Source of the DNA: a virus | Strand: one strand, 5' to 3' | Virus record (IMG/VR): IMGVR_UViG_3300045988_112819 | Length of the DNA stretch: 64,000 bases | Part shown: positions 20,658 through 58,981 of the stretch, one piece after another | Layout of the letters: each line of letters starts with the position of its first letter | Position numbering within the stretch: the stretch's first letter is position 1 | The notes under the pieces: model-generated | What the model was told of the DNA's origin: nothing | The model's input: only the letters and a program-made list of their open reading frames with translations | The model's database searches: none | Position numbers and translations under genes: made by a program

Positions 20658-21704
20658 ATGATAAAATTAGATTATACTATTGAGTCTCCAGAAGAACGGA
20701 AGGCACTTGTCGAAAAAATAATCGCAGAAAATCCGAACCTTAGTTCGAGTTATTTAGAAATATTAGCAGATTATTTAGTTCTATGTATGGAAAAGCAAGA
20801 GAAAAAAGAAAAGAATATATTAACAGATAATAGAATGGCTACTGTTAATAAAAGAGAATGTTCTTTCGAAGGGCTTGCGTCATAGATGGAAAATGGCGAG
20901 GATGGCATTTATGGTTTAATGTCAGAAAATAAAAATGTTATATTTTAGCCAAAGATTTCTATTACACAGAAAGATTTAGATACTATACCATGTTTAAAAT
21001 AGTTGAGAGAAACCATTAATGTCTGGGAGGGCGCTTTAAAACGCGCTGCTGGGACAAAATAGGCATATATGATGAAAAAAGCATTAATAGAGATGCGAAA
21101 AGATTAGTATATCATTAAGCAAGCATATTAGAAACCTATTATACCATGTAAATTAACGAGATCCGTAAGAACTCATATTCCTCTTGATGATTAGAGTTAT
21201 CTTAATGGACAGGAGGTAGTAGTAAAGGGTATTTCGCTAATGGACGCCAATGTTGTTTCTGCTATTTTATGCAATTATTCAAAATTAAAAGAGGATAGTT
21301 ATGATTAGTTTGAGGGAGATACATGGTATTTAATTCAATCATTTGAAGAAATATGTGATAAAGCTCTCAAAGACTTTCCAATCTATTTACGAATTGTTGA
21401 ACTCAAAATTGATAAAAAGTAGAATAACGAAATATAGGAAATATTAAAAAATGAGTTTGGTAAAACATATAGTGTTGAATATATTTCTAGCCTATGGAGA
21501 AATAAGATTCCTAAACTCATTGCGGAAGAGGCTTTAGAAGATTTTTTACGTTGGTAGTATAAACAAAAAGGATACCCAATGAAAAAATGTTCTAAGTGTG
21601 GGCAATTAAAGCCAGCCCATAATCAATTCTTTTCAAAGAATAAGACAAGCAAAGATAACTTATATAGTATCTGTAAGCGCTGTCGCAATAAGAAAAGAGG
21701 TTGA
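20658..21704 (+). CDS. hypothetical protein with C-terminal CxxC zinc ribbon (348 aa), about 11 in-frame TAG; first late gene
   Basis: AAAGGAG RBS; TGA stop. Confidence 0.6.
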
Positions 21705-21710
21705 TTATAA

Positions 21711-22880
21711 ATGAGCCATTATTGTAAAAAATGTGGTAAAACTATGGATGATACATAGTTTTATACATCAAAAAATTTAGAGAAGTATCCTCCAGATGGA
21801 AAGATGGATATTTGTAAAAAGTGTCTTACTATGCACGTAGATAACTGGAATCCAGAAACTTATAAATGGATTTTATAGGAGATTGACGTTCCATATATTA
21901 AAGAAGAATGGAATGGTTTATTGGAGAAATATGGAAAAGATCCAAAGAAAGTTACTGGATTAACTATTATTGGACGCTATTTATCTAAAATGAAATTAAA
22001 GCAATGGAATAAATACACTTGGGCAGATACAGAAACGCTAGAGAAAGATTCCATTGATAAAAAAGTTCTTAATATGAAAGCTCAAGGATTTACAGAAGAT
22101 GAAATCCAAGAGCAGTTGTCTATTGATAGAACTCCTCCAAAACCAAAAGAATTAGAGGATGTTTAGGCCCCTGTAGGAACTCCAGAATATGAAGATCCAG
22201 AGGAAGATGATGATTTTGGTGATTAGCTAACCGAAGAAGATAAATTAGTATTACGTCTTAAATGGGGCCGCGGATATTCTTGGGAAGAAAGAGTAAGAAT
22301 GGAGCAGCTTTACAATGATATGATGAGTTCTTATGATATTCAAGGAGCAGGCCATAAAGATACTCTTATTATGGTATGTAAAGCTAGTTTAAAAGCAAAT
22401 TAGTTAATTGATGCTGGAGATATTGATGGCTTTTAGAAGATGCAAAAAGCCTATGATAGTTTAATGAAAAGCGGCAAATTTACGGCTGCTTAGAACAAAG
22501 GCGAATCCGGTGAATTTGTAGATTCAATAGGTGAATTAGTAGCCCTTTGCGAAAGAGAGGGTTTTATTCCTAGATATTATACGGAAGGACCCCAAGATAA
22601 AGTAGATAGAACTCTTTAGGATTTACAGCAATATACTCATACTCTAGTTACAGAGGAAATGAATCTTGGTAATATGATCGAAGCTTCGTTAAGAGAAATA
22701 GTTAAAGACAGAGAACGCGAGGCAAATATTGATGTTGAAGATAGCGATGAGGATGAAGATTTATTTAATTACGAGCATCCAGAATTAACAGAAGAAGATT
22801 ATCAAGAGTATGAAGATATGAAAGAGTCGGAAAGAGACAAAGATGAGGAAATGTTAAATAATATATTAAAGGAGGTTTAA
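21711..22880 (+). CDS. hypothetical protein with N-terminal zinc ribbon (389 aa), about 9 TAG; small-terminase candidate by position only
   Basis: AAAGAGG RBS; directly upstream of terL. Confidence 0.5.
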
Positions 22881-22883
22881 TAT

Positions 22884-24629
22884 ATGGCATTAAAAGATTT
22901 ATTAAACCTTTCAAATAATAATAAGAAAATTGGTCTTTCCGAAGAAAGAGTTCGTGCGATAATTCCAGCAGCAAGATAGTATATAGCTTTTTGGAGAGAA
23001 TATCCAGATATGTTTATTGACTTTTTGTAGACCGGAGGAGACGAGACAAGAAAAAAAGAAATTAATTTTTATTTTTATTAGAGAGTTTTCTTGCGGGCGG
23101 CCATGAGATATAAGTATGTATACATGGTATTTCCCCGTGCCTATTCTAAGTCATTCTTATCAGTAATGGTGCTTATGTGTAGATGTATATTATATCCTGG
23201 ATGTAAGCTATTCATTACTTCTGGTGGAAAAGAACAGGCAGCAGGTATAGCAAAAGAAAAAGTCTAGGAAATTTGTAATGCGATTCCCGCGCTTTAGAGA
23301 GAGATTGATTGGCGAAGAGGTAAGACTTAGGAAGGAAAAGATTATTGTAAGTATATCTTCAAAAATGGATCTTATTTTGACAACGTTGCTGCTAGAGAAT
23401 CTTCTCGTGGTAAGCGTAGACATGGAGGATTAATTGAGGAGTGCGTTGGTGTAGATGGAGATATTTTAAATGAAGTTTTAATCCCTCTAATGAACGTTGA
23501 TAGAAGATGTTTAGATGGATCTGTTCATGAAGAAGAAACACTCAATAAATCCTAGATTTATGTTACTACTGCGGGGTGGAAAAACACATTCCCATATAAT
23601 AAGTTGATTACTTTGCTAGTGCGCATGATACTAGAACCCGAAAAGAGTATTGTAATGGGCGGAACATGGAGAATTCCTGTGCTAGTGGGATTACAATCCC
23701 GCAACTTTGTATAGGAGTTAAAACAAGATGGTACATTTAATGAAGCATCATTTGATAGAGAGTATGAATCTAAATGGAGTGGCACCGTAGAAGATGCCTT
23801 CTTTAATGGTGATGCTTTTGATAGAAGTAGAAAATTGCTTTAGCCTGAATATGAATCTTCCGGGCGCTCTTCTGCTCAAGCATATTATGTTCTTTCTGTT
23901 GATGTAGGAAGAAAGAAATGTCAATCTGTTGTATGTGTATTTAAAGTAACCCCTCAGTCTCAAGGACCAGCGATTAAGTCTCTTGTTAATATATATACTA
24001 TGGATGATGAACATTTTGAAGATTAGGCAATTAAGCTAAAAAGATTATATTATGATTATAAAGCTAAAATTATTGTTATTGACGGTAATGGACTTGGTGC
24101 TGGATTGATGGATTATATGGTTAAACCACAAATAGTGCCAGATACCAATGAAGTTTTTCCTGATTTTGGTGTAGCTAATGATGAGGATGGAGAATACAAA
24201 CGATTTAGAACAGATAATACAGAATATGATGCTATTTATGAAATTAAGGCAAATGCGCCAATTAATACCGAAGCCCATAGCAATGTTTAGACATAGTTGC
24301 GGGCTGGAAAGTTAAGATTTTTAATCGACGAAAAAGTTGCTAGAAATAAATTACTTGGTACCAAGAAAGGTCAAGCCATGAAACCAGAAGAGCGGGCAGA
24401 ATATTTAAAACCATTCACTTTAACTTCTATATTAAGAGAAGAAATGCTAAATTTGCGAGAAGAAAATGAGGGTGTAAATATTATTTTAAAACAGGCAAAT
24501 AAGTCTGTGCCCAAAGATAAATTCTCTGCGCTTGAATATGGATTATATTATATTAAATAGGAAGAAGATAGTAAACGCAAGCGTAAAAGTAGAAGATTTT
24601 CAGATTTTATGTTTATGAGTGAGGTGTAA
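22884..24629 (+). CDS. terL: terminase large subunit (581 aa), 13 in-frame TAG
   Basis: ATPase-like segment MVFPRAYSKS and nuclease aspartates IVIDGNGLG; continuous frame joins the ORF-track pieces 24105 and 24297. Confidence 0.75.
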
Positions 24630-24632
24630 GAT

Positions 24633-24989
24633 ATGAAGGCCAGTCGTGGAGAAATTAAAATTCATGAGATATTAGAGCAAAATGGCATGAACTTTAAAGA
24701 AGAGTATGAGTTTCCTGGGCTGAAAGCACCAAGTGGCAGGCCACTTCGTTTTGATTTTGCTGTTTTTGATGATGATGGAAATCTTGATTTTTTAATTGAG
24801 TATCAGGGTAAATAGCATTATTAGGCTGTTAGTAAATTTGGTGGAAATAGAGGATTATACCAATAGAAATATAATGATAATCAAAAGCGTAGATTTTGTG
24901 CATTAAAAGGTATTACCCTCATTGAAGTTCCCTATACGGAGGAAAATATCATCTCTTATGATTATTTAATGAGTAAAGCTGGATATTAA
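24633..24989 (+). CDS. PD-(D/E)xK-type nuclease-like small protein (118 aa), 3 TAG; possible homing endonuclease between terL and portal
   Basis: FDFAVFDDDGNLDFLIEYQGKQHY (D...EYQGK). Confidence 0.4.
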
Positions 24990-25006
24990 CACCTGGAGGT
25001 GATATT

Positions 25007-26632
25007 TTGTTAAAACGTCGATAGGAAGAAATAAGAGCTAAAGGTTTTGATCTACTAGATCGAGGTATTATTACTCGTTATCAATAGGAAGAAGATTTTT
25101 TGAACTATGATACTGTTGATTATGCAAAAATGCGAGTTGGATTACGGTCTGTGGATGATGCGCTTATTAATCTAGGCACATATAAAAAGATAAATAGAAA
25201 TTATGGAGATAAAAAGTTTGTATTAAATGCTATTTATAAGCATGATTACAAGACTTTAAGAGAGATTTCTAATTACTTTTATGAAAGTAGCGGTATTTAT
25301 TATAGATTATGTAAATATTTAGCCTTCTTATATAGATTTGATTGGTATATTACTCCATACACAGTAGATGCGTAGAAAGATAAAGATAAGCTATTGAAAG
25401 ATTTTTCAAAGGTCTTGCTTTACCTTGATAAATCTAGTGTGAAGAGAATGCTTGGAAATATATCATTAGATATTATTAAAGAAGGAGCTTATTATGGTGT
25501 AATTGTTGATTTTGGAGATAGATTTGCAATTTAGAAATTACCAGCTTCATATTGCAGAAGTAGATATTTCTAGGGCCCTAATCCAATAGTAGAATTAAAT
25601 CTTTAGTTTTTTGACACTTATTTTGCCAATCCGCAATATAAAATCTAGATATTAAAGATTTTTCCACAGGATATTCAAAAGGCATATATTCTTTATAAAC
25701 AGGGAAAATTAAAAGGGGATTATCCAGGTGATACTACTGTATGGTATCCACTAGATCCTAGTATTTCTGTAAAGTTTAGTCTAAATGATAATGAATTTCC
25801 TTTTCTAGCTGGGGTTATTCCTTCTATTATTGATTTGGATCAAGCACAAGAATTAGATCGTCAAAAGACAATGCAACAATTATTAAAAATTATTATTTAG
25901 AAGTTGCCTCTTGATAAAAATGGAGATTTGATTTTTGATGTTGATGAAGCAAGGGATATTCATAATAATGCTGTAACTATGTTAAAACGAGCTATTGGTG
26001 TAGATGTATTAACAACTTTTGCAGATATTGAAAAAATTGATACAAAAGATAATAATTCTAATACAACAACAGACGATTTGGAAAAAGTTGAACGTACAGT
26101 TTATAATAACTCAGGTGTAACTCATAATTTGTTTAATGCAGATGGCAATATTGCAGTTACAAATTCTATTTTGACAGATGAATCTAGCGTAAGAGATATT
26201 CCTCTCATGTTTACAGATTTATTAAATCGAGTAGTAGAGAAATTTAATCGCAAAAATCATTATGAGTTTAGAGCGGAAATGTTAGAAACTACCTAGTTTA
26301 ATTATAAAGAGTTATCTAAATTATATAAAGAACACGCTCAACTGGGTTATTCTAAGATGTTGCCACAGATTGCTTTAGGTCACTCTCAATCGAGTATATT
26401 AGCTACATTAACATTTGAGAACGAAGTATTGAATTTGGCAGAAATTATGATTCCACCTATGAGTTCTAATACCAGAAGCGGAAAAGATTTGGGTAATAAT
26501 AATTAGTCATCTAAAACTAATTCTTAGAATAAGTAGACAAGTTCAACTAATACTAATGGAGCCGGCAGGCCCAAAAAAGAAGATGGCGAAAAGTCAGATA
26601 AGACAATAGCTAATCAAGAAAGTTCGTCATAA
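25007..26632 (+). CDS. portal protein (541 aa) from TTG, about 14 TAG
   Basis: GGAGGTG RBS 6 nt before TTG; size and position; continuous through 25100 and 25904. Confidence 0.65.
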
Positions 26633-26646
26633 AGGAGGGATTGAAC

Positions 26647-27894
26647 TTGCATATTAGTGTTCCCATTTTAAATACGATGGAATATATTTAGAACACTTAG
26701 ATTTCTCCTCTAGTTAGTAAAGGTGTCTGCAAAGTTTGCTACGTTGGGTAGCAACCTAACCGCAACCATACTGTAATTACCAAAGAAGTGGCCGCGGAAA
26801 TGGGACGTAAACTACCAGGAAGTCCTATTGTTGGATATTTTAATCATGAAATAAATGATTTTGAAGGCCACAATAGAGAAATTATTGTTCGAGATGGTAA
26901 GTTTGCTATTGTTGATACCACAAGACCATATGGATTTGTTCCTACAAATGCAAATGTATGGTTTTAGAAGTTCAATGATGAAGGCGTAGAAAGAGAATAT
27001 CTTGTGACAGATGTATACATTTGGACTAGCGTTTATCCAGAATCTAAAAGAATCCTGGAGAATGGCAATAACCATTCTATGGAATTGAATGAAGAAAATC
27101 AATCAGGATTTTGGACAAAAGATGATAAAACAAATGAAAGAATCTTTATCTACAATGAGGCATTGATTGAGAAATTATGTGTTCTCGGAGAAAATGTTGA
27201 GCCTTGTTTCGAGGGAGCTCAATTTAGTTCTCAATTTTCTTTAGAGAATAATCAAGAGTTTTAGAAACTTAAAACTATGATGTATTCTATGATGGATCAA
27301 TTAAAAGAAACTTTAAATAAAGGAGGCTCTCAAGAACCTATGGAGAAAGAGAATAAAGCACCTACCGATTTCAAGAAAAATACTCCTAATCCCGAAGAGG
27401 ATAAGAAGACTTCTGAAAATCCTGCTCCAACTTCCGAGAAAGAGAAGGAAAAGAACGCTCCTCAAGATAAGAAGTATAATCTTGAAGAAGTAACAGAATA
27501 TACAGAGTTACTTACAAAGTTTACCGATCTAGAGACTAAGTACTCTGCTCTTGAGCAAGAAAAAACTAATCTAGATAATGAAGTTGCAGCACTAAGAGAA
27601 TTTAAACTTAATGCTGAACGTCAAAGTAAACAACAAATGATTGATAGTTTCTATATGTTAAGTGATGAGGATAAGAAAGATGTCGCTGAGCATATTGATA
27701 CTTATTCTTTAGATGATATTGAAGCTAAATTATCTATTCTTTGTGTTAGAAATAAAGTAAATTTCAATCTTGAAGAAAAGCATAAAGAAGAAGATAATAC
27801 CCCAAAGGGACTTTTTAATTTAAATAATCCAGAAACTGACAACGTTCCTGATTGGGTAAAAGCAATTCGTGAAACTGCTAAAAGCAGTATTTAA
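26647..27894 (+). CDS. scaffold protein, possibly fused to a prohead protease (415 aa), TTG start, 5 TAG
   Basis: AGGAGGG RBS; C-terminal coiled coil TDLETKYSALEQEKTNLDNEVAALRE; sits between portal and capsid. Confidence 0.5.
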
Positions 27895-27907
27895 GGAGGA
27901 TTAAAGA

Positions 27908-28597
27908 ATGGCTAAGAGTTCTAAAAGATTAGGTAATGCCACTTTTGTCCAGTATGGATATGGTCAAGTGGAGCCAAACCATCTTTCCGCTCCAAGAAAT
28001 GGTCAAGTATATGCTCAGCTTCCCGCAGCTAGCACTATTGAGATTCTTGAGAACGGTCAATTTGTAAAGTATGATTATGCAAAAGGCGTATGCGATTTTA
28101 GTACGGAAGCTACTTCTGGCGCCTGGATGATGGTATTTAATGAAGTAAAGATTTATAGAGATCGCGAAACTGATGCTGATTTTGCTATGATTAAGGATAA
28201 TTATAATGCTCGTGTATATAGTCCAATTGGACAAACAGTTTCTACACTTGCTACAATAAGTGATTATACCGGAGAAGCTGTGCGCGAAGGTAGTGATGTA
28301 GCATATAAGAAAAATATGGAGACATTTACTTATCCTGCATTGATGCCAGAAGGAACTAAAATGGTACCTCGCGTAATTAAGATTAGTATTGGCGATATTT
28401 GGACTACTAATACCATTAAGGCTAATGCCGGAGAACTTGCAGTAGGCGATCGTCTAAAGATTGATACTGATGGATATTTAACTAAAGATACTGAAACTTC
28501 TGCTAAAGGTGGAGATTTAGATCCTATCTTTGCAGTAGTAAAAGTGTATACTATGCCAGATCTTCAACCTGGTGTAAAAGTACAGCGTGTAGGTTAA
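27908..28597 (+). CDS. capsid-associated structural protein (229 aa), TAG-free
   Basis: ORF track; AAGGAGG RBS. Confidence 0.5.
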   Translation: MAKSSKRLGNATFVQYGYGQVEPNHLSAPRNGQVYAQLPAASTIEILENGQFVKYDYAKGVCDFSTEATSGAWMMVFNEVKIYRDRETDADFAMIKDNYNARVYSPIGQTVSTLATISDYTGEAVREGSDVAYKKNMETFTYPALMPEGTKMVPRVIKISIGDIWTTNTIKANAGELAVGDRLKIDTDGYLTKDTETSAKGGDLDPIFAVVKVYTMPDLQPGVKVQRVG

Positions 28598-28616
28598 TTG
28601 GAAGGAGTGAAGAAGA

Positions 28617-29669
28617 ATGTTAGATAAAGCTAATTTACTTAGTTTAATGAAAACTGTCGCTAATGCAAATCCTTCTGGTACCTATAGCTATCAAGGAGAG
28701 TCTTTTAGCTATGACGCTTTAAATACTACTTTGCGTAATGAGCTAAATGAATTTGTTGGCACAGATGAACTTTATAGAGAAAATAAAAATATTCTATTCT
28801 CTTTAATTGAGCAGACTATGGACGAAGTTGTTCCTAATCGTTTACTCAATTCTTATGGCAATTTTGCTGAGATTAGAACTTTCGCACAAGGCGACAAGCC
28901 TGTATTTACTCGTAGAACTGGACTTACTCGCGCTAAGCAATTCATTACTCGTGTGGGGCTTGCTGGTGTGTATGAGACCTTTAAGCTTGGTTCTGAGAGC
29001 TTCGAAGTTGGAACAAGCGCCATTGGTGGAGCTGCTCGTATCGGATTTGAGGAGTTCCTTGATGGAAGAGTAAACTTTGCAGAACTTACTCAAATTGTAA
29101 CAGAGGGTATGCAAGAGCTTATTTATAGAGAGATTGCTCAAGCTCTTATGGGTTCTATCAATCAGCTTCCCGCGGCAAACCGTTGTGCTGTTGCTGGTTT
29201 TGACGAACCAACTATGGATTATCTTGTAAATACTGCTACTGCTTATGGTCAGCCAACTATTTATTGCACTCGTGAGTTTGCAGTAAAAATGATTCCAGAT
29301 AATGATGCTTGGATTTCTGACAACATGAGAGATCAGTATTGGGGAACTGGTTATCTTGCAAATTACAAGGGAACTAGAGTGGTAATTCTACCTCAAACTC
29401 TTGAGGATGAGACTAACTCCAAAAAGATGATCGATCCAGGTTATGCTTGGATTATTCCTGGTGGAGCTGAGAGCCGTCCTGTAAAAGTTGCTTTTGAAGG
29501 TACTACCCACGTGCGCGAACGCAATGATAATGACGACTGGTCTCGTGATATTCAGGTTTACCGTAAGGTTGGTGTCGGTGTAATGATGGCGAATAACATC
29601 TTCTCTTATGTTGATACTGAACTTCAAGGCGAGCTTGATAATACTAACCCAAATCCAAATAATGGTTAA
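28617..29669 (+). CDS. major capsid protein (350 aa), TAG-free
   Basis: ORF track; size and position; GGAAGGAG RBS; followed by an attenuating terminator. Confidence 0.6.
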   Translation: MLDKANLLSLMKTVANANPSGTYSYQGESFSYDALNTTLRNELNEFVGTDELYRENKNILFSLIEQTMDEVVPNRLLNSYGNFAEIRTFAQGDKPVFTRRTGLTRAKQFITRVGLAGVYETFKLGSESFEVGTSAIGGAARIGFEEFLDGRVNFAELTQIVTEGMQELIYREIAQALMGSINQLPAANRCAVAGFDEPTMDYLVNTATAYGQPTIYCTREFAVKMIPDNDAWISDNMRDQYWGTGYLANYKGTRVVILPQTLEDETNSKKMIDPGYAWIIPGGAESRPVKVAFEGTTHVRERNDNDDWSRDIQVYRKVGVGVMMANNIFSYVDTELQGELDNTNPNPNNG

Positions 29670-29675
29670 TTGACA

Positions 29676-29710
29676 GGGGATAGGGAAATATCCCTATCCC
29701 CTTTTATTTA
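29676..29710 (+). terminator. intrinsic terminator (ggggataggga aata tccctatcccc) plus T-run
   Basis: 11-bp stem after the capsid gene. Confidence 0.65.
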
Positions 29711-29733
29711 TTGAGAAAAAGGAGATAAAAATT

Positions 29734-30267
29734 ATGAAAAATAGTTGCACTGTTTATAATAAGAGCGCAGGTCGTGTTGTATATAGATTGCCTGAATTGG
29801 GCGTGCGCCGTATGTTTTACCCTGGAGAACATAAGGAACTTGAAGTATCTGAACTAGAAAAGCTAGTACAAACACCTGGAGGCCGCAAATTAATTTATAA
29901 TTACTTGCTTGTGGATGATAGAGAGATTGTTGAATATCTTATTAATGGTAGGGTTGAACCAGAGTATTGGATGAAAGAAGAAGAGATTGATTCTTGGATG
30001 AATACGTGTTCTTTAGATGAATTTAAGGATGCTCTTGATTTTGCTCCAGAAGGCACTAAAGATCTGATTAAATCCCATGCTATTTCTCTTCCCTTAAATG
30101 ATATGTCTAAAAGAGACGCTTTGGAAAAACAATTAGGATTTAATGTTACTAAAGCATTAGAATTAACAGCAGATGATAAAAAGAATCCTAAGGAAGAGAA
30201 ACCTGTAAGAAGAGTGTCAACTACAAGTGAGGATGCTCCAAAACGCAGAGTAGCTATTTCTGATTGA
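29734..30267 (+). CDS. hypothetical structural protein (177 aa), TAG-free
   Basis: ORF track. Confidence 0.55.
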   Translation: MKNSCTVYNKSAGRVVYRLPELGVRRMFYPGEHKELEVSELEKLVQTPGGRKLIYNYLLVDDREIVEYLINGRVEPEYWMKEEEIDSWMNTCSLDEFKDALDFAPEGTKDLIKSHAISLPLNDMSKRDALEKQLGFNVTKALELTADDKKNPKEEKPVRRVSTTSEDAPKRRVAISD

Positions 30268-30286
30268 CATAAGGGAGGTTATAGCC

Positions 30287-30829
30287 ATGGATAATAAGAA
30301 ATATCCAATTTAGGGCGATCCGACCCCCTTTGAAGAAATTTATGATAGATTTTTTGGTAAAATTACTGATGATATGTATATGGAATGGACATAGGAAGAT
30401 ACCGAAAAAGATTTATATAATATCTTAATGGATGCTCTTCCTGGTTTTGAATTCCCTCGTTTTCCATTATACAGTTTTACCAATATAGAAAACAATGATG
30501 AAGAGACTGGAATAGCAACTATTATTCCAGCCTTTTCTGCACATTTAACGACAGAAGAAATAAATATTCTTGCTATTCTAATGTATAATACTTGGTTACA
30601 ACGCCAGGTGGCTTCAATAGAATAGACGAGAATGAAATATTCTGGAACAGATTTTAAAATGACTTCCTAGGCCAATCATTTAGCCAAATTAATAGAGTTG
30701 AAAAAGGAAGCAGAACGTCAAAGTCATCATATGCAGCGTCTCTATAAAAGAAGAAAACTAATTGATGATCAAGGCTCTTATAAATCAAACTGGTCAACAT
30801 TAAGAGAGACGAGTGTTTTTGATGGATAA
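30287..30829 (+). CDS. head-tail connector-region protein (180 aa), 5 TAG
   Basis: AAGGGAGG RBS. Confidence 0.5.
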
Positions 30830-31130
30830 ATATGATATTAATTTCCCATTAGAAACAAAAGAGTAGGATTTAAAGAGATTGATTAATTAGTTATGGAAGT
30901 TAATTCCAATGAGAGAGAATAATGAAGACTGGGTAAACCATTTGAATGTAATAACAGAAGAAATTAGTGGATTAGTTAAAATGTATAAAGATAGAGTTGA
31001 GGGACTTATTTTATTGTCTAAACTGGAAGGGTTATCTTCAAATGTCTGTAATGATTTTATGATTTATCGAAAAACAGTCTTTAGATGTATTGATTTGTTG
31101 GCGTAGGTGATTAGAGATGATGAATCTTGA
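30822..31130 (+). CDS. hypothetical protein (102 aa), 3 TAG, start overlapping the upstream stop
   Basis: frame continuous with ORF-track 30909. Confidence 0.45.
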
Positions 31131-31134
31131 ATTA

Positions 31135-32109
31135 ATGCGAAAAAGATTTGAATGGTAGGGTGGTATTCACTAGGAAGATAGAATGATCAAAGATAAATGG
31201 AGAACTCTTTAGAAAGCATTATTATATTCTTATCAAGCCTGTACCGTTCAATTAGTCTAGAAGTCAACCTAGGTTTTAGATGCAACGTTAGATGCTGTTG
31301 ATCCAGATATGAATATTTATCCTATGTGTCGTGCGCTTATTAATCCAGATAAAGTGAAACAGGACTATGATGATAAGATAATCTCCATAGATCATATTAA
31401 TCAATATGGGCCTGGAGATGTCTTTGAGTGGAAAAAAACTGGCACTCACTGGATAATTTATCTTGAAGAAATAACTGAGGACGCTTATTTTAGAGGGGAA
31501 ATAAGACGTTGTAGATATAGAATTAAGTTTAAAGATTAGGAAGGGAATTGGTGTTAGACTTGGGCTGCGATTCGAGGTCCAGTTGAAACCCAAATCGAGT
31601 CTATTTAGAAGAATCAAGAAAGATTGGATAAACCTAATCTTAGCTTAAACATACTTATGCCAAGAAATGAGAAAACTATTCATGCTTTTGATAGATATAG
31701 CGAATTTTTGTTCGCTGGAAGATGTTGGAAAGTTTAGGCTCCAGATGATATAAGTATGAAGAATGTAATTGAAGTTAGTGCAGAAGAAGATTATATAAAT
31801 AGAGACACTGATGATATAGAAAATAGTATGAAAGATGGTTTAATATTCGAACCAGAAGATCCTACTCCAAATAGCGGGATTATGGGAGAGACTTTTATTA
31901 AACCAATGATAGAAGAATCTTATTCTGTAGAAGAAGCTAATGGAGCTTGGTCAATATTAGAAAAGAATGTTCCTGTAACTTTATGTCCAAATGGAAATAA
32001 ATCTGTTTAGTTGGTGTGGAATAAAACTACTCATGGTCAATTCACTCTAGTATGGAAGAAGGATAATACTGTACTGGAAAAAGTTATTGTAGTAGAATCT
32101 TTATTTTAA
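31135..32109 (+). CDS. hypothetical structural protein (324 aa), about 10 TAG
   Basis: joins ORF-track 31309 and 31756 in one frame. Confidence 0.5.
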
Positions 32110-32124
32110 GGAGAGTGAATTGAA

Positions 32125-32661
32125 ATGAAAAAAAATACTTATGAGTATCCTAAATCTAGTTTGTTAGGTATGTAGAAAGATGCTTCTCTGATTATGGAAA
32201 GAATACTTTCTAATTAGAATGTTTTGAAATTATTAACTTATAATACTAGAGATTGGAAAAGTAAACCGACCGTTACAGGAGATATGATAAAGGAAATGAT
32301 TGATACTAAGTAGATTTCTGCTGTTCCTAAGATAAAGGTTGATAGACCAGAAAAATCTTATTTAAGATTGATCTATGGCACTATGGTTAGAAATTCTACA
32401 AATCCTGAATATAGAGATAATACATTTGGTATTGATATTATTTGTCATTATGATAATTGGGATTTGGGAGATTATGATTTACGACCTTATCGAATTGCGG
32501 GAGAGATAGATTCAATGCTTGATGGAACTCATTTAACGGGTATAGGAGAGCTAGAATTTGTATCAGCTACGCCATATATATATGATGAAGAATTTGCTGG
32601 TTTGTCTCTAACATATCTTGCTATTCGCGGAAATGAAGATAAGGTAAATCCACTTGCTTGA
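32125..32661 (+). CDS. hypothetical structural protein (178 aa), 3 TAG
   Basis: AAGGAG RBS. Confidence 0.55.
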
Positions 32662-32677
32662 TTATAGACTAGCTTTA

Positions 32678-33403: not shown

Positions 33404-33417
33404 GGAGGAATTAGCTC

Positions 33418-34809: not shown

Positions 34810-34814
34810 TTTTA

Positions 34815-34850
34815 AGGGAGGACTTAATAAAGTCCTCCCTTTTTCTTTTT
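34815..34850 (+). terminator. intrinsic terminator (agggaggact taataa agtcctccct) plus T10
   Basis: seen directly. Confidence 0.7.
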
Positions 34851-34868
34851 ATAAGGAGATATAGGAGT

Positions 34869-36311: not shown

Positions 36312-36315
36312 AAAC

Positions 36316-36344: not shown

Positions 36345-36376
36345 AAAAATATAAATGAGATAAAGGAGTTTTTACA

Positions 36377-36916: not shown

Positions 36917-36949
36917 TAAATCTAATATAATTTACAAATTAGATAGAGA

Positions 36950-45748: not shown

Positions 45749-45799
45749 TAGGGGAGATTTCCTCCCCTATTATCCCTATGAGAAAAAGGAGGATAAATA

Positions 45800-48700: not shown

Positions 48701-49714
48701 GGAGCTTTTACAGTAAAATATAATGGAACTGTAAAAGCAACCAATGCAGAAGTTTCAGGGACTATTTACGCCTCTTCTGGTAAAATTGGAGGAACGAAAA
48801 CAGGATCTAATGGTTGGACTATTGAAACCAATAGACTATATAGCGGCTCTGGCTCAACGAGAGTTGAATTAAATAGCCAATCTCCAACCAATACTTCTAC
48901 TCCTACTAATAATAATGATTTTGCTATTTGGGCAGGAAGTGCTACAGCATCAAGTGCTAAATTTTCTGTTTCTAAAGGCGGATTAATTACTGCTAAATAG
49001 GGAAATATTGGAGGTTGGATTCTTTCTTCTAATAAGTTAACTAGTGATAATTATAGAACTGGAATAGCGAGCTCAGGCACTTATCGTTTTTGGGCAGGAG
49101 CTAGTTCTAGTAGTACAGCAGATAGACCAGTCTTCTCTGGATCCTCTTACTTTTATGTTACTAGCTCTGGAGAAATGTAGTGTAAAAATGCAACAATTAA
49201 TGGTTCAATTTACGCAGATGATGGTGAGATTGGTGGCTGGACTATCAGTTCTAATAGAATTTCTGGAGGAAGAACTACACTATATTCAAATGGTAGAATT
49301 GTGTGTGATGATTTTGAATCAGATAATGTAGATATTAGTGGAGATATTAATGCAACTACTTTGACTTGCAATAACGGTGAGATTGGTGGCTGGACTATCA
49401 CTGAAAGTGATATTAGAAATGGTGTAACAAGATTATCTGATGAAGGTCTTGAAACTAATTAGGTACAGATTTATATGGGAAGGAATTGGAACACTTATCT
49501 TGGATATTTGGGGTATGTTCCAGGTGAGGATGATGATGGAGTAACTGATAATATTGGTATTGCAACTATTGGAAGAGGGTAGAGTATTATTCTTAAATCT
49601 GCCAGAAATATTGCTTTAAATACTGAAGGAGCAGGTATTTGGGTTAATGCAAATCAATTCCATATGAATGTGCCAAAATCTGGATAGGATGGTATTTATG
49701 CCCAATTTGCGTAA
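45800..49714 (+). CDS. large tail protein (about 1304 aa) with repeated GxIGGW(T/I)I motifs; may be more than one gene
   Basis: AAAGGAGG RBS; single frame through 47153, 47687 and 48638; near-identical 30-bp repeats at 49216 and 49376. Confidence 0.45.
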
Positions 49715-49728
49715 GGAGTTGATAGTAT

Positions 49729-50469
49729 ATGGGTTCTGTAACTTTACATTCTCCTTCTTACTCTAGTGTTGGATAGAGATATGCTTCAATAAGTTGTACT
49801 GCGGTAGGATGGGTATATCCAAGTGATTCTGGAACGACTACTACGGGAGATAGTAAAAACGGTTCTAGAACTACTATTTCTTATAGCAATACAGTATGGA
49901 GTTGGAGCTTTAGTGATGGAGGCAGCTCTAGTTCAAAAGAACCAACTCATAATTTTACTGGTTTAACCGCGGGAAGGGCAAACACAGTTAGAGGCACATT
50001 AAGTGCTAGATGTACGAAAACCACTACTGTAACTCGATGGTCTACTCATAGAGAAGAAGTAGGAAAAGATGAAAATGGGAATCCAATATATGAAGATGTA
50101 ACAACAACTACTGGGCCAACTACGTCTAGGACAACAGTTAGTTTAGGATCTGCATCTGATAGTGTAACTGTATATACGCAACCAACTAGCTTTTCTTTTG
50201 GATGCAGTCCTGGAGATTATATAGCAGATTATGCTACAGCCAGCAAATGGAATTAGTTAGCTGACTAGGTTGGTAAATATAAAAGTTGGAGAAACTAGTC
50301 AAATCAGTATTCTTCATACAATAATTTAAAAGTTTCTCGTGGTGATTGGATAACTGCGAGTGTTTATAATTCTATGGCATCTGCTTGCGGGACTTCAAGA
50401 GTTACCGCAGATAAAACTTTGATTAGTGCAGCTTTATTTGAAGCTTTAGCAGATGCGGTTTCGCCATAA
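49729..50469 (+). CDS. Ser/Thr-rich tail protein (246 aa), 4 TAG
   Basis: AAGGAG RBS. Confidence 0.5.
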
Positions 50470-50489
50470 GAGAAAAAGGAGTCTTAATT

Positions 50490-50861
50490 ATGAAAATGTT
50501 AAACAAGGATATTTTGGAAGCAGTTGAGAATTTAAATTCTACAATACAAGATTGCTCACTTCTTCCCGCGAGCGTATCATATGCAGTAATAAGAAATTTT
50601 AAAATTCTTTCTCCTATTGCTGAGGATATTTATAACGAACGAAAAAAGATTATTGAAAGATATGGAGAAAAAGTTGATGATATAACCTATTAGATTTCAG
50701 AGGAGAAAAGGGAAGCGGCTAATCAAGAATTAAATGCTTTATTGGCGGTTAATACTAGTGTTCCATTAGCGACTTTTTCTATTGATATTTTATAGGGGTA
50801 TGATATTCCTTTAAAAGTTATGAATACTCTATATTTTATGGTGGAGGCTGACGAGGAGTAA
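50490..50861 (+). CDS. hypothetical protein (123 aa), 2 TAG
   Basis: ORF-track start; hairpin over the stop codon. Confidence 0.5.
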
Positions 50862-50946
50862 AACTCGTCAGCCTCTTGGCCAATTATATTTATAAAAAAT
50901 ATAAGATTTTTTAAATATTTTAGATGAGAAAAAGGAGGCGTTAATT

Positions 50947-53736
50947 GTGCCAATTAGTATTTATCCGCCTACTTTGTAGAGTACATAGCCAGCATTTCTT
51001 TCTAGCGTGAACGTATATCAGATAAATTTTACGCTATAGTCAATTACGTCTTTTAATGATATAGGTCATGTACAAGTGCGGTTAGTTCGTTAGTCTAATA
51101 ATAAAAGTATTGTAAATACAGACCAATATCCAGATGGAACTATTTATAAAGCTCCTTCTGCGATAGGGTCTTTAGGAAATCAATATTTTGTATCAATTAA
51201 TAGAAGCGAATTAGCCGAATCTTGGTAGCCAGGCTATTTATACAAAGTACAAATGCGTTTTGGTATAAATCCAATGTATACTTCATTATCAGAATTTGCC
51301 ACTTGGAAACAATAGCAGATAGACGCGGGAGCCTTTTCTGAATGGTCTACTGTAATGATAATCAAGGCTATAGATACACCAATTATTAAAATAGAAAACG
51401 ATGAAGCTAAACGAGAAGATGTTATATCTACTGAAAGAATAGAGGCAACTCTTACTCCTTTGTTTATAGGAAGCTTTAATATTAGCTCTGCTAGTAATGA
51501 ATTATTGGATAGATATAAATTTGATTTGTATGAAGGAGCCTCTAAAGATCCCAATTATTTACTTGAAACATCTGGATGGTTATAGCACAATGGTTCTATT
51601 AATAATACCGATACTTATAGATTTAAAACCGTGTTAACCAATAATAAAAGCTATACAGTAGTCTACTCTATTATTACTATCAATGAATATGAAGGAGAAT
51701 CAGAGCCTTATAATTTTTCAGTTAATAGGACCTATTTGGGAGATTTAGAGGGAGTATCTATTAGAGTTGAGGATAATGATGTATATTGTCGAGAAAATGG
51801 TTGTATAAAAATATTTTGTACTGCTAAAAATGGACTTAGTGGTAGTTATGTAATAACAAGAAGTTCTGAAAAAAGTAATTATTAGATATGGGAAGATTTA
51901 AAATATCTTAAATTTTCTAATCAAGTATTAAATGATTCAGTTATTCATGTTGATTTTACTATTGAAAGTGGTATAAGATATAAATATGCCATACAATAGG
52001 AAAATTCAGCAGGGTTGCGGACTTCTTAGGTATATGATACAAGTAACCAAGGTAGAAGTGTTGATTTCCAATATAGCTATATTTATAGGGATAATATATA
52101 GTTAAAGTTATCTCTTAATTAGACATTATCCAGCTTTAAACATACTACTTTAAGAAGTAAACAAGATACCTTAGGAAGTAAATATCCTCATTTGGTTTAG
52201 AATGGTAAGGCTTATTATGCAGAGTTTCCAATTTCTGGATTAATAAGTTTTTAGATGGATGAAGATTAGACATTTTTCTCTTTAAAAGATGATGGACTTT
52301 ATTACAATAATGAATTAGTAATTCCCAAAGACAAATTTATTAAAAACAATGTAACCAGAGGAAAATGTCAAGAGAAGTAGGAAACTTATTCTGAAGTTTC
52401 TACAGATGAAAATAAATTATCTATCTCAACTAGTTTAACAAATGATAATATTTTTATTGAAAGAATATTTAGAGAAAAAGTGGAAGAATTTTTAAATGAT
52501 TTTAATTATAAGCTCTTTAAATCTTCTACCGAAGGAAATATAATTATAGGCTTGCTGAATGTATCTTTGACTCCGAATAATACGGTCGGCCGCATGATTT
52601 ACTCTTTTTCTGCTACTGCGTATGAAGTTTTAGAGAATACCATAGAAAATTTAAATGAAGTTAATATAATAAATATTGGTAAATTTGAAAGTTTGGCTAG
52701 CGAAGATAGAATAAATTCTTTCGGATAGTTAAGTGGAATTTATGGTAGAAATATAGATTTATATGCAAAGATAAGAGAGCAGGAAGAAGTTAGTATAGGC
52801 GGAGGATATAAACTTAATTTAATTCAAGTTACAGATATTTAGATTGAGCAATATCCAAAAATAGATTTGACTGCACGATTACTAGAATTAGAAGCTCTTA
52901 AATCTGAAGCCGCGGGAGATGACGAGGATACTTCTGAATATGATAGACAGATTTAGGAATGTAAAGATTTGATTCTCGCTCTTGATGGTCCTGAATCCGC
53001 AACTATCGAAATTAATGTTAATGGTTCAAGAATTTTAGTTGCTCCAAATAGAGTTTATCATTTAAATGAAAATGTAAATTCTTTATCTTTGTCCGCGTCT
53101 AGCGTTCCTATTATTGTAAATTATGTTTGCTAGTTGAATTAGGTTGAGGACGTTTCTGTTGGAGTCGTTTCTGCTATTGATGCTTCTCGCATTTGGGGAT
53201 AGATTTCTGGAATTTTTACTGGTACAGATGGAGTTTTAAAATTCTATAATTACGATTATAGAAACAGTGAAACTTATCGTATATTTAGTAATGTTCCACC
53301 AAATATGGAAAAGTTTTTAGTTAAGGATAAATAGGGAGATACTATTGTTGATAATACAACCTTTAATCTATATAAAACCATTAATATTTACGAGATAATA
53401 AAAGAAGAGACATAGAAACAAGTTGAGCTTATATACAATACTCATTTTGAATTAAATGATGATGGATAGTTGACAGATGGCGAGATTTATTATACTTTTA
53501 GTGATATTGTTTTACTTGACATTGAGGCAGATGAAGGAACTACCCTTTTAATTAGTTCTAGTCCAGATGGAAGTAATCCGTCTATTATAAAGATTGGCTC
53601 AACTGGAAGGTATACTCTTAATCCATTAGATAATATGGTTAAATATATAGCTTTAGAAAGTGCTTAGTTTTGTGTAATAAATTATAAATGTTTAACAAAT
53701 CAAATGCGCATGAAGGTGGAATAGTATTATGTTTGA
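50947..53736 (+). CDS. baseplate / tail structural protein (about 929 aa), GTG start, many TAG
   Basis: AAAGGAGG RBS; frame joins 51355, 51631, 52480 and 53470; TGA stop overlaps the next start. Confidence 0.5.
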
Positions 53737-55633
53737 TTATTTAAATGATATGGATTTCCTTATAGCTCTTGATAAATTAAATATTAAAACTCATTACGCA
53801 AAAATTATTTTACTTTCTTTTGATGAAAAACCTATTAGAGAAATATAGGGCAACATAACTGCTGGTAGTTTAAGTGTTAATGGATCGTCCTCTGTTCGTA
53901 GAACAATTAACCTAACTATGTTGGCTAATGAGAATAATAGCGATATTGAAAATATAGATAATGAGATTTCAATAAACAAGAAGGTTAAAGTTTTTGTTGG
54001 ATATAATAATCCGTTAAAGTCTTATGCAAGATATGGAGATATAATTTGGTTTCCTTGTGGATTATTTGTTTTATCTAACGCATCGGCAGCAAGATCCACT
54101 TCTGGATGGACAATCTCTATAAGTGGAAAAGATAAAATGTGTTTACTTGATGGAACCGCAGGAGGGACGTTTCCAGGCTCCATAACCTTTCATGAAAGTT
54201 ATATATAGAAAAAAGATGGAGATATAGAAATTGTATATCCAACTATCTTTCAAATTATATATGAAGCAGTCAACCATTGGGGCGGAGAAGCTATAACAAA
54301 TATTATTATTACTGACATAGAAGAAACTTGTAAGATGTTGGTTAAATATATAGGAGATAAACCCATATATTTTAGCAATAATTATGAAAGTATGGACTTT
54401 TCTCCAAGCGCTGATTTTCCTCATATGATAAGTTATGGATAGGATGCTGGATATAGAGAAACTGAATTTACTTATCCGGGAGAATTAATTTTAGATGCTG
54501 GAGATACTGTAACTACTCTATTAGATAAAATAGTTGAAGTTCTTGGAAATTTTGAGTATTTTTATGATATAGATGGTCGCTTTATCTTTTAGTAGATAAA
54601 GAATTATCTTAATACTGGAAGTCCTTTAACAGAGTTATCTCCAGAAAATTATGTAAAGAGCTATAATAATGCTAAGTTTTTATACTCTTTAACCGATCTT
54701 GATACTACTACAGCCATAACCCGCAGTCCAAAGTTTGATAATATAAAAAATGATTTTTATGTTTGGGGAAAGAGAACCACTACATCTGGAGTAGAAGTTG
54801 ATATTAGGTATCATCTTGCTATTGATACCAAACCAATAATTGACTTAGCAGGATATTATATGTGGGCTGTGAGTGATAAAGAAACGGGATTAATTATAAG
54901 ATATGATTTTAATAATATATCTTCTGATTATTCAATATCAGGATATGAAGTAGAATTAGTTGGATCTCCATGCGATGAGTGGAGAGAGGAATTATATCGT
55001 AGAGCATTAAACGCACAAGTAACAAATAGTGTATATGATAATTATTATGATTCTGAATTAATCGCCGAATGGCGCAATTTATATAATCCACTAAATGGGA
55101 AATGGGATGAATATAATCATTGGAATCCAGATGTATTTAATAATCCAGGAAATCTAAACTATTGGCTAGATTTTATAGATACCGGTTCAGAAATTGGAAA
55201 ATATTCAATAAATGAGATAGGTAGAAGGACTAAAGTAATTAATAGTTCTGATATAACTTCCGTATATAATATAGAAGCTCCTGATATTATATTTATTGAA
55301 GGATTAGACCAGGATTTGATAGCAGAATATAGAGGAATTGGTTAGAGATTTTTTGTTCTTACTTCTGAGTATTATAATTTATTTTCAATAAGCTCCACAA
55401 ATGCAAGTTGTTTTGATAAAATTAGAGAAATGTTGTATTAGAATTTAAATTATAATACAACTATATCCATTACTTGTTTACCAAAATATTATATGGAACC
55501 AAATAATATTCTTTATGTTGAAGATAAAGACAGTGGACTTAGTGGAAATTATTAGATAACCCAATTCACTTTACCTCTTTCATATAATGGAACTATGAGT
55601 ATTACAGCCACGGAAGTATTAACAAGAGTATAA
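53729..55633 (+). CDS. baseplate / tail structural protein (634 aa), 8 TAG
   Basis: GAAGGTGG RBS; joins 53918 and 54860. Confidence 0.5.
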
Positions 55634-55649
55634 GGAGGAGTAGGAGATA

Positions 55650-56240
55650 ATGCCAACTGTTGGTCAAATATATTATAATGTAATAGATAACAACAGTGGT
55701 AGTTATGTTTCTAGTGGGTAGAATATATTCAGTGATATTGTTGTCCAAGTGGGGGCCTCTCAATTTAATAAAGTTGGAGTATAGGCTCCTGCTGGGACTA
55801 AGATAGTTATGAATGAATCAAAAACTATTATGGTTGGTAGAACTGGAATATATGAACTAGATGATGACATAGCTATTACTAATATGTATTTTATTAGACC
55901 TAGAAAGTATGAGAAAGACGAAGAAGCATCTCAGTAGGCTATTGAACAAGGAACTGCGGGAATGCAAGCCGCAGACAAAAAAAGAAGTGAAGATTTGGAG
56001 AGATTTTATAAAGAAAATCCAGATATGCCAGATCAAGATACCGATCCAGAAGGATATAAGGCTTATTGGGACGCATATAATAATATTTAGACTGCTTATA
56101 TAGAGGCTTATTAGACAGCATTAAGCTTATATAATCAGGGGGTAAATGGCATTTATGTACTACCAAATCCTGATAATGTTGATGCTCCAGAAAATTATTA
56201 GGATTTATATAATGTCATTATTGACTTTATTTATGTATAA
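55650..56240 (+). CDS. hypothetical tail protein (196 aa), 7 TAG
   Basis: GGAGG RBS. Confidence 0.5.
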
Positions 56241-56254
56241 GGAGGTGTCAAACT

Positions 56255-58165
56255 ATGGAGAGTTTCTATGGAGGACCTAAAGGTATAGATTTTGAAATTA
56301 AGCAAATCTTTACTAGTAAATATTAGATGGATAGAGATTTAACAAAGGGTTGGACATCTTCTATTTTCCCTGGAGATTTCGTTATTGTATCGTATGGTTT
56401 GCCAAGTGATGCAAATTATGATATTTATAAGAATGAAGATTTATAGAATTATGGTAAAAGTTATAACTCTACCCTTTGGAAAAAAGTTTTTAATGATAAA
56501 GATGGAAGTGGGTCTGCGGGCGGCCTAAGCTATGAGATGCAGGCTTCCATGACAGGAAATACACCAAGAATTAGCTTACATGATACAGAAGTTCTTGATG
56601 CCGACAAAGATCCAAATGTAGTTTGGGATAATACAGATTTAGATAGATTGTGGCTAACTTTTTAGCTACCTTAGAGTCAAAATATTCAATTAGGTGAAAC
56701 AACTGTTCTAGACTGCAATAAAAATCCTACTGCGGAATTAGATACAACGGATATAAATAATCCAAGTTTAAAATTATCTTTGCCACAATCACAAGTTATT
56801 GAAACGGCACTGGTTGAATTATTAAATGTTGGAGAGGAACCTACAGTATCCTTAGAAACGTCTGGTTCTTATTCTATAAATAGACCGGCAATTAAATTCC
56901 AATTACCTGTATCTCAATCATTATAGGAAGGAACTACAACAGCTCTTGATTCTAATGAAACACCATATTTTGAGATAAATTTTGATGATATAAATAATCC
57001 AGTTATTAATTTCTTTTTACCTCAAAGCTAGGTAATGGGAAATCCAGAGACTATTATTGTAGGTCCAGAGGAAAACCCATCAGTTTAGATAAATAATACT
57101 AATATTAATTCTCCGGTATTAAAATTTAGTTTACCAGAATCTATTAAGTTTTATTATGGTGAACTATTAGGGGAAAGAACTGCTGGGATTTATGAAGAAA
57201 CGAATGAAGCTTTTGCAGATTATAATATTGGTGATTATTATATTAATGCACCGACCGGTTTTATTTACAAGGTAACAAAGAAGTCGGGTACAACTTGCAC
57301 TTTCCAATATGTTGCTTGTATTTAGTCTCCATTGCCTGAAATAGAAGTAACAAAATTAGATCCTTACACAAATGGCGGTAGCGGGTATGAACCAACTGCA
57401 CCTACTGTAGTAAGAGAATTTACTAATACAGAAGAAACCGCTTGGAAACTTGTCTTTGGGCTGCCATCCGCGGTTAAATACGGAGTTTCTTTTGATTTTA
57501 TAGGAATTGATGAAGAGGGATCTGTCTCTAGTAAGATTATTTCTTCTGATACAGTAAATCTTGATTTCTAGATTCCAAGAGGATCTAAATTATTTGCTGG
57601 ATTAACTGTTTCTGATACATCTTTAAATGTTACTGTTGATGGAGCTAAAACAGGAGATCTGTATTTAAATACTGATACAGGAGATATTTATTCATTAGGC
57701 TCTAATGGAACATGGGTTAAGAACAAAGGAAACTTAAAAGGTCCTGTTGGAGAAGCTCTTAAAATAGTTAAAAGTTACACTATTAACGAAACTGAAACAA
57801 TTAAGGATTCTTTATAGAATGGCGTAAATTACATCGAAGAAAATTACGATGGAGAAATCAGCGCAGAGGATATTTTCTCTATTACTTGGGTTGAATATGA
57901 GACTAATTAGGAAACTTCTTATTGGTATTATAAAGCAGCCGATGGAGTATGGGGAAGAGTTCAACTAACCGGAGGTATTGCTAACCTTATTGATAATGAT
58001 TATAATAATGAAGATGGTGGAGAGGTAACAAATAAAACTTATAGCGTTCATTATATCAACACTTTAATCGGTGGAGCTATTACAAATAAAGATAGATAGA
58101 CATATTCTGCCGAATAGATAGAAGAGTTGTTATCTTGGGGAAGTTTTAGTGATTTAATACCTTAA
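56255..58165 (+). CDS. tail fibre protein (636 aa) with five (F/L)xLPQSQ repeat units in which TAG aligns with CAA
   Basis: AAGGAGGTG RBS; frame through 57332. Confidence 0.55.
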
Positions 58166-58198
58166 TTTATATTTAGAGAGTATAAAGGAGGGCCTAAA

Positions 58199-58981
58199 AT
58201 GGCTTTATTTAAGATTTTTCGAGGACCAGAAGATAATTTGAATAGTGTACCTCTTCATGAAGGATACGCTTATTTCACAGAAGATAAAGGAAATCTCTTT
58301 ATTGATATTAGTAATGAAGAAGGTGGGCGTTTGCAGGTAAATGCCTATGCTGCTCAAGTTCTAAAGAATGATATTACTGAGATTGATATTGATGATATTT
58401 TTCTTAAAAATATGACTGCCACTGTAGCTCAGGGCGGAACTGGACATAATAGTCTAACTGTAAATGCTTTATTAATTGGTAATGGAACTAATGCGGTAAA
58501 GATGGTTGAAATTGAGGCTGGTTAGGTTGTTATCGGAAATAGCGAGAATGGTGTAACAGGATTGCAAGGAACTGGCGCTTTATTTGCCGCTACAGCTGGC
58601 GCTCCGCAATTTGGAACGCTTCCAATTTCAGTTGGTGGAACTGGGGCAATTAATGCAGCAGGGGCGAGAACTAATTTAGATGTGTATAGCAAATTGGAAA
58701 CAGATAACTAGATTAGTGGAAGTACTACGGCAGCTTATCCAGCAACTCTTTCTGCATCAGGTTGGGTATTAAATGAAGATATGTATACATATACTTATTC
58801 CAATACTTCTTTAACTTGCGGAAAAGCAGGTAATGTGCCACCTATTATTAGTTATACTTCTAATCTTGAAGAGTATAGTAAAATTGATCACGCTGATGCA
58901 TCAGTTGGGGTTGGAATTACCTTTTATACAAAAGAAAAACCAACAAATGATATTGCTATTATTATCATTGATGTAAAATAA
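58199..58981 (+). CDS. tail fibre protein (260 aa; N-terminus MALFKIFRGPEDNLNSVPLHEGYAYFTEDKGNLFID), 3 TAG
   Basis: AAAGGAGGG RBS; joins 58781. Confidence 0.55.

Follow-up and report, generated by a model that had tools for sequence, protein, structure and literature searches.

TAG encodes glutamine in the virion genes of a gut phage of the code-15 class

A 64,000-nucleotide stretch of viral DNA (IMG/VR record IMGVR_UViG_3300045988_112819), the whole of which we call the window, raises the question of what the triplet TAG means in the late genes of the phage that carries it. An earlier note, drawn from the sequence alone, had proposed that TAG has been reassigned genome-wide from stop to sense, most likely to glutamine. 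TAG is indeed a sense codon in the late genes, where TAA and TGA remain the sole stops, and it stands for glutamine in the virion block, in folD, in the genes of a diversity-generating retroelement (DGR) and in a few other genes. The window, with a G+C content of 35%, is very probably a portion of about 64 kb from a 100-150 kb siphovirus-like gut phage with genetic code 15 (TAG = Gln in the virion block), kin to the SPbeta-like and Enterococcus H1-like phages of Bacillota.

The first evidence is coding capacity. Open reading frames (ORFs) of at least 100 aa cover 22% of positions 20658-58981 under translation table 11, 23% when TGA is taken as sense and 98.5% when TAG is, the last reading turning the region into one continuous + strand operon. 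The late + strand genes contain 280 TAG but not one TAA or TGA in frame over 12,232 codons, while each stop codon occurs 143-726 times in their two off-frames. The longest run free of TAA and TGA extends for 2913 codons; the maximum in 100 shuffles was 209. Family matches to the portal, large terminase (TerL), tape measure, FolD and reverse transcriptase (RT) run full-length across the TAGs, so that the comparison of tables 15 and 11 suggested by the earlier note comes out clearly in favour of the former. The same note had given TerL, with its 13 TAG, as 581 aa, the portal as 541 aa and the tape measure as about 2908 aa, sizes that prove exact, and had the late ORFs all ending at TAA or TGA, as they do. 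Its statement that no long ORFs exist under the standard code holds as regards the low coverage but goes too far, since table 11 leaves five late ORFs whole (229, 350, 177, 463 and 179 aa) because they lack TAG. The genes of the late block to which we refer below are the following.

20634..58981, + strand: late/virion gene block, about 23 long genes read with TAG as Gln, stops TAA or TGA throughout
20634..21704, + strand: sigma-factor-like protein, first gene of the block, 11 TAG (phrog_5767 'sigma factor', 1e-38)
22884..24629, + strand: TerL, 581 aa, 13 TAG
25007..26632, + strand: portal protein, 541 aa, 12 TAG (phrog_2739, 2e-80 over residues 73-539)
27908..28597, + strand: TAG-free late gene of the head module by position, none of 8 Gln codons being TAG
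28617..29669, + strand: TAG-free late gene, presumed major capsid protein from position alone, none of 13 Gln codons being TAG
33418..34809, + strand: virion structural protein (phrog_2729, 2.5e-55), presumed major tail protein/tail tube by position, none of 12 Gln codons being TAG
37022..45748, + strand: tape measure protein, 2908 aa, 101 TAG (PF10145 PhageMin_Tail)
56255..58165, + strand: tail-region protein with five paralogous units, 13 TAG

The notion that the TAGs in frame are mere artefacts, due to pseudogenes, to faulty assembly or to leaky readthrough as a rare event, draws only on the fragmented appearance under table 11; it is refuted and retains practically no probability: 280 TAG stand in frame with no TAA or TGA, identical TAG sites are kept across many independent assemblies, and leaky readthrough is unable to make a protein with 101 TAGs.

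Which amino acid is inserted at TAG was approached in four independent ways, and it is because they agree that we assign glutamine. The first is internal to the window. Five paralogous units of the tail-region protein, at 56660, 56774, 56897, 57011 and 57125 (TFqLPqSQ, KLSLPQSQ, KFQLPVSQ, NFFLPQSq and KFSLPESI), place TAG opposite CAA at three positions. The five units and three correspondences had already been recognized in the earlier note, which located them at 56690-57130; they actually span 56660-57145. It also called this gene, which has 13 TAG, a tail-fibre gene; the label is positional, the gene having no family match.

The second test is a Codetta-style likelihood over 198 TAG columns aligned to the standard-code phages H1, E3 and KKP_3916. 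Glutamine is the best residue, with E at -28, K at -34 and W at -131 nats relative to it. The proportion of columns facing Q is 17.7% for TAG and 19.9% for the window's CAA/CAG codons, K and E being the next commonest residues opposite TAG. Two more sets, made of standard-code IMG/VR relatives, again put Q first, by 37 and 19.5 nats; the alignment of TAG with Q in homologues that the earlier note had asked for is thus found in three standard-code sets, with Q best by 20-37 nats. The third test is restricted to conserved columns, in which at least 6 standard-code homologues are present and at least 70% of them agree on one residue. TAG faces Q in 15 of 24 such columns, the others being N (3), D (2), E (2) and P (2), with neither K nor W; the corresponding count for CAA/CAG codons is 33 of 45. 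Finally, among strains 85-99% identical to the window, 68 of 96 distinct exchange events (71%) join TAG to a glutamine codon, 44 of them TAG<->CAA and 24 TAG<->CAG. Since the two-step change TAG<->CAA is the commonest swap, the pattern points to synonymy and not to mutational proximity.

Where does the decoding tRNA come from? ARAGORN detects no tRNA gene in the window, as the earlier note had stated in placing the decoding machinery elsewhere in the phage or in a host with an alternative code. Related IMG/VR contigs of 96-146 kb were obtained by exact-match and protein-guided searches, the closest being ~97-99% identical where aligned, and a tRNA with anticodon CUA was found in all six that were examined. 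In four of these the late block is present as well, 97.7-99.2% identical to that of the window, and one of the other two aligns to it at ~85%. From contig coordinates, the gene lies ~22 kb beyond window position 1, on what is the window's - strand, that of the early block. It sits in an array of ~30 tRNAs that includes tRNA-Gln(UUG) and tRNA-Gln(CUG), as a single copy in the 20 kb examined. With the Rfam tRNA model the molecule reaches 61 bits, and it folds into a clean cloverleaf with the loop CUCUAAA, an unpaired U1·U72 and G73; we take U35, G73 and the unpaired 1:72 position to be GlnRS-type (glutaminyl-tRNA synthetase) identity elements. Its closeness to the second Sup-CTA tRNA of phage phAss-1 amounts to 84% identity, and a Sup-CTA gene of that phage, the copy being unspecified, was typed Gln by tRNAscan-SE (Babkin et al. 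2023, PMC10607447). The occurrence of this tRNA in six related contigs indicates that the decoding tRNA is supplied by the phage itself, outside the window, rather than by an alternatively coded host.

Inspection of the window's ORFs and of those in ~40 kb flanking the locus in relatives, without a family search, revealed no recognizable release-factor or aminoacyl-tRNA synthetase gene. When the window and two loci of the tRNA array were compared with Rfam at gathering thresholds, tRNAs and transfer-messenger RNA (tmRNA) alone came up, with no ribozyme beside the suppressor tRNA. The tmRNA lies within the tRNA array of three relatives (L018, 7965-8285; L021, 7792-8107; L023, 7487-7802) and carries the tag peptide DNDYFENYLAA in L021 and L023. 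A 117-nt tRNA-like match at 10661-10777 of L018 possibly contains an intron.

That TAG is sense but specifies another residue (pyrrolysine, Trp, Glu or Lys) appears very improbable. ARAGORN prints the tRNA(CUA) as 'Pyl', its anticodon being the sole ground for this; its sequence is slightly nearer to phage tRNA-Trp (70-72%) than to phage tRNA-Gln (67-68%); and K and E do rank next after Q opposite TAG. Yet the likelihood deficits of E, K and W given above, the conserved columns (15 Q against 2 E, 0 K and 0 W) and the 71% of strain-level swaps that go to CAA/CAG, the two-step TAG<->CAA included, all favour glutamine, and the tRNA has an ordinary cloverleaf fold. Pyrrolysine was considered separately and rejected, K lying 34 nats below Q and the tRNA being devoid of the atypical tRNA-Pyl architecture; a non-exhaustive search for Pyl genes (pylS, pylBCD) found none.

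The distribution of TAG over the window is uneven. Among Gln-family codons of the late block, TAG (280) outnumbers CAA (234) and CAG (60), that is, it makes up 49%; in the DGR block at 58982-64000 its share is ~23%. On the other side of the late block lie the following.

1..19427, - strand: early-orientation block, 16 ORFs of at least 130 aa, TAG-free save for one TAG at codon 22 of one ORF
3928..4566, + strand: helix-turn-helix (HTH) protein, weakly ScpB-like, inside the early block, TAG being 11 of its 12 Gln-family codons
19428..20252, - strand: FolD, 4 in-frame TAG (PF02882, 3e-37; PF00763, 4e-8)

Statistics for the early block were taken from - strand ORFs because greedy calling with TAG as sense picks spurious antisense ORFs. 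None of the 16 ends at TAG, their reading is identical under both codes, and the ORF with a TAG at codon 22 probably has a later true start. The large early-strand genes, being TAG-free, would therefore be translated correctly by an unmodified standard-code host. Thus the reassignment is not genome-wide in the sense first proposed: the large - strand ORFs of 1-19427 are code-neutral and TAG use is patchy. The exceptions that carry TAG are folD, three of whose four TAGs fall within its Pfam domain matches, the ORF directly upstream of it, the HTH gene and a few small ORFs, in which TAG exchanges with CAA in relatives. The HTH gene shows the strongest TAG bias of the window; it is aligned in only one relative among those covering the site. 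Both folD and the DGR RT (60124-61341), which the earlier note had listed among the genes made continuous by reading TAG through, lie outside the region 20658-58981 that it described.

Inside the late block three genes depart from the rule. The absence of TAG from 27908-28597, 28617-29669 and 33418-34809 has probabilities of P = 0.005, 2e-4 and 3e-4, respectively. The same three genes contain 0.04-0.05 TAG per 100 codons in 23-25 distant TAG-recoded relatives, against 0.7-3.1 in their neighbours, which amounts to a 15-60-fold depletion. That TAG is avoided in the virion proteins presumed to be the most abundant suggests a limiting or costly capacity for suppression; this avoidance, which is not discussed in the preprint of Borges et al. 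(10.1101/2021.08.26.457843), leans on gene labels presumed from position. The presumed capsid gene (28617-29669) has more than 7,400 full-length homologues and no Pfam, NCBIfam or PDB match in sequence or profile searches; an AlphaFold model on a shallow alignment gave a predicted local distance difference test score (pLDDT) of 47, too low for use. Of the CAA and CAG codons taken together, CAG accounts for 18% in the late genes that contain TAG, for 38% in those that do not, and for 35% in the early block. The depletion of CAG where TAG is common is consistent with TAG arising mainly from CAG by C-to-T change.

The phage belongs to a large family. Relatives of the tail protein occur on at least 291 IMG/VR contigs, and of the 79 loci examined some come from TAG-recoded and others from standard-code genomes. 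Eight relatives were considered as TGA-recoded and rejected as such: their homologous genes have no in-frame TGA, the gain in coverage coming from antisense ORFs in the tape measure gene, and they are standard-code genomes. Cultured relatives infect Enterococcus, Geobacillus, Alicyclobacillus and Bacillus. Matches in genome collections are all contigs of metagenome-assembled genomes (MAGs), among them ~148 kb phage contigs binned with Oscillospiraceae and Eubacterium. The host is probably a member of the Clostridia/Bacillota. Two of the ~148 kb phage contigs (L115 and L116), 90-91% identical in the presumed capsid gene, may give a weak hint of the host or reflect mis-binning.

Could the host itself read TAG as sense, the phage merely mirroring its code with no switch on infection? 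In favour of this, the window is without a tRNA or release-factor gene, and the nearest genome-collection matches are whole phage contigs that were placed in Oscillospiraceae and Eubacterium MAGs. The possibility is nevertheless highly unlikely. Six related contigs carry their own tRNA(CUA), and the complete avoidance of TAG in large early-strand genes would be needless if the host read TAG as Gln. Where phage and host share a code, ~90% of genes are recoded (Borges et al., 10.1101/2021.08.26.457843). In addition, the hosts of cultured relatives are standard-code Bacillota, and TAG-recoded and standard-code members are interleaved in one phage family.

A single tRNA that reads UAG has a precedent in the amber suppressors of E. 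coli: supE is a tRNA-Gln with anticodon CUA, and su7 a tRNA-Trp with anticodon CUA that is charged with Gln. Both are low-efficiency suppressors, in competition with release factor 1 (RF1), and U35 together with G73 favours charging with Gln. The situation predicted here is similar in that one tRNA with anticodon CUA would insert Gln at UAG. It differs in that the codon is used hundreds of times and near-complete efficiency is required. Indeed, the 101 TAGs of the tape measure mean that suppression must be more than 99% efficient per codon, and therefore that RF1 is outcompeted or neutralised.

These observations can be arranged in a sequence of events. The early strand would be expressed after infection, so that suppressor tRNA(CUA) builds up, and a host enzyme would charge it with Gln. 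Only then would the TAG-rich late mRNAs, with the sigma-like factor (20634-21704) first, become translatable at full length, RF1 being outcompeted or disabled during late translation. Recoding would thus act as a translational gate on late genes, according to the model of Borges et al. Both this model and the late-gene recoding architecture have been published (Borges et al., bioRxiv 10.1101/2021.08.26.457843), and TAG-to-Gln decoding has been demonstrated by proteomics in crAss-like phages (Peters et al. 2022, PMC9523058).

Several points weigh against the picture of a code-15 phage that gates its late genes in a standard-code host. The overall sequence of tRNA(CUA) is 67% identical to phage tRNA-Gln and 70% to tRNA-Trp; similarity does not separate a Gln from a Trp origin, so that the assignment of this tRNA to Gln depends on the codon evidence together with the published typing of its homologue. 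The suppressor tRNA is known from relatives (four ~97-99% identical contigs and two more distant ones), not from the window's own flanks. The early/late split is not absolute, as small early-strand ORFs and one + strand gene have TAGs that look like sense codons. The steps of the gate, namely the timing of expression, the charging and the displacement of RF1, are ones that we infer from sequence, and the standard code of the host is judged from the hosts of relatives and from MAG bins.

A more serious alternative accepts the change of code and denies it a regulatory role. TAG would have accumulated neutrally after capture of a suppressor tRNA in an AT-rich genome with rare TAG stops, and the early/late pattern would reflect expression level or gene age. 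In keeping with such codon capture, TAG occupies less conserved positions (15-20% aligned to Q, as compared with 33-34% for CAA/CAG), CAG is at 18% where TAG is common against 35-38% elsewhere, as C-to-T drift predicts, and the presumed abundant proteins shun TAG as they would any poor codon. We consider this account unlikely, though by no means negligible, since TAG-free large early genes adjoin a block in which TAG is half of the Gln codons, and since a sigma-like factor with 11 TAG heads the late block and the HTH gene reaches 11 of 12, a pattern that looks selected. The neutral and regulatory views are not exclusive.

Another possibility, put forward tentatively, is that TAG works beyond an on/off late switch as a graded dial on protein yield, its density tuning virion stoichiometry and timing. 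The presumed highest-copy virion proteins would be kept TAG-free, while TAG would be plentiful in the low-copy tape measure, portal, terminase and tail tip and in regulators, namely the sigma-like factor and the HTH gene; suppression capacity would then be limiting. Failed events would possibly be cleared by a phage PTH2 hydrolase and by tmRNA. An archaeal/eukaryotic-type peptidyl-tRNA hydrolase (PTH2) and a microbial PARG-like (TIGR02452) protein adjoin each other on the - strand, at 17661-18098 and 18083-18913. That the phage-borne PTH2 could recycle peptidyl-tRNA from unsuppressed TAGs is speculation.

How does this phage compare with systems already described? Code-15 gut phages, in which TAG is read as Gln, were reportedly first described by Ivanova et al. 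in 2014. The present phage shares with them in-frame TAG concentrated in structural and late genes with early genes readable in the standard code, TAG aligned with Gln, a phage-encoded tRNA(CUA), Firmicutes-type relatives, and the presence of recoded and standard-code members within one clade. Coding density, the alignment of TAG with Gln, the tRNA(CUA) in relatives and the partial early/late use of the codon all place it in this class. It differs in that neither a release factor nor a synthetase was seen in the window and the relatives' flanks inspected, and in that the lysis cassette, the focus of the published analysis of bias, was not identified in the window.

Within this class, phAss-1 (OQ749652) is filed by NCBI under 'Caudoviricetes code 15 clade'. 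A monophyletic group to which Enterococcus phage EF1 also belongs has been described (Babkin et al. 2023, PMC10607447); within the proposed Phassvirus genus, that of phAss-1, nucleotide identity is 80-86%. The points of resemblance are these: phAss-1 is likewise of human-gut origin, has a genome of ~136 kb with a large tRNA set, a tape measure of ~3,100 aa and no dedicated synthetase, its TerL, portal, tape measure and tail fibres are interrupted by TAG, and EF1 is its standard-code relative; on our side are the homologous Sup-CTA tRNA (84%), a tape measure of 2908 aa and at least 30 tRNAs in relatives. It has, however, two or three copies of Sup-CTA, against the one in 20 kb of relatives here. 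The two TerL proteins are 44% identical in amino-acid sequence, and blastn with the TerL-portal region gave no match to OQ749652, which points to a different genus-level lineage within the same wider clade.

The standard-code relatives are Enterococcus phages H1, EF1 and VRE9, Geobacillus virus E3 and Alicyclobacillus phage KKP_3916, with an SPbeta-like, YonF-type terminase. The likeness lies in TerL (48-50% identity over ~93% of its length with H1, E3 and KKP_3916), in a syntenic head-tail module and in a very long tape measure, homologous to tail proteins of the same three phages and matched by PF10145 over the full domain (residues 187-394, 2e-29). In contrast to the window, their structural-module genes are continuous ORFs without in-frame stops. 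The phage can therefore be counted as a new lineage within the known class of code-15 recoded phages.

A few further features deserve mention. Phrog 15503 covers the N-terminal part of TerL and phrog 24618 its C-terminal part, both being half-length; these two families may derive from gene calls on recoded phages that use of the standard code had fragmented. The sigma-factor-like protein has a zinc-finger/HNH-like C-terminal tail. Close to the tail-region protein, 53729-55633 matches a tail-protein PHROG and 58199-58981, weakly, a tail-fibre PHROG. Beyond the late block lies the DGR, as follows.

58982..64000, - strand: complete diversity-generating retroelement, comprising RT, template repeat (TR), variable repeat (VR) and target gene
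60124..61341, - strand: DGR RT, 3 TAG (RVT_1, 1e-16; phrog_1423, 4e-84)
61648-61750, - strand: TR
62371-62473, - strand: VR, at the 3' end of the target gene
62357..63985, - strand: DGR target gene with Big_3 and DUF6273, 7 TAG

The 103-nt TR/VR pair is mismatched at TR adenines and VR lies at the 3' end of its target, as in DGRs. A 164-aa ORF at 61781-62275 occupies the position expected of an Avd-like accessory gene.

The finding leaves current understanding unchanged, as the phenomenon and the wider phage group are already documented; the avoidance of TAG in the presumed highest-copy virion proteins is the sole aspect that we did not find discussed in earlier work. Its practical bearing is on annotation and classification, for which code 15 is needed, table 11 shattering the terminase, portal, tape measure and tail genes; an abundant family of gut phages depends on its recognition. 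Moreover, a clade in which recoded and standard-code members are interleaved offers a clean setting in which to study how recoding arises.

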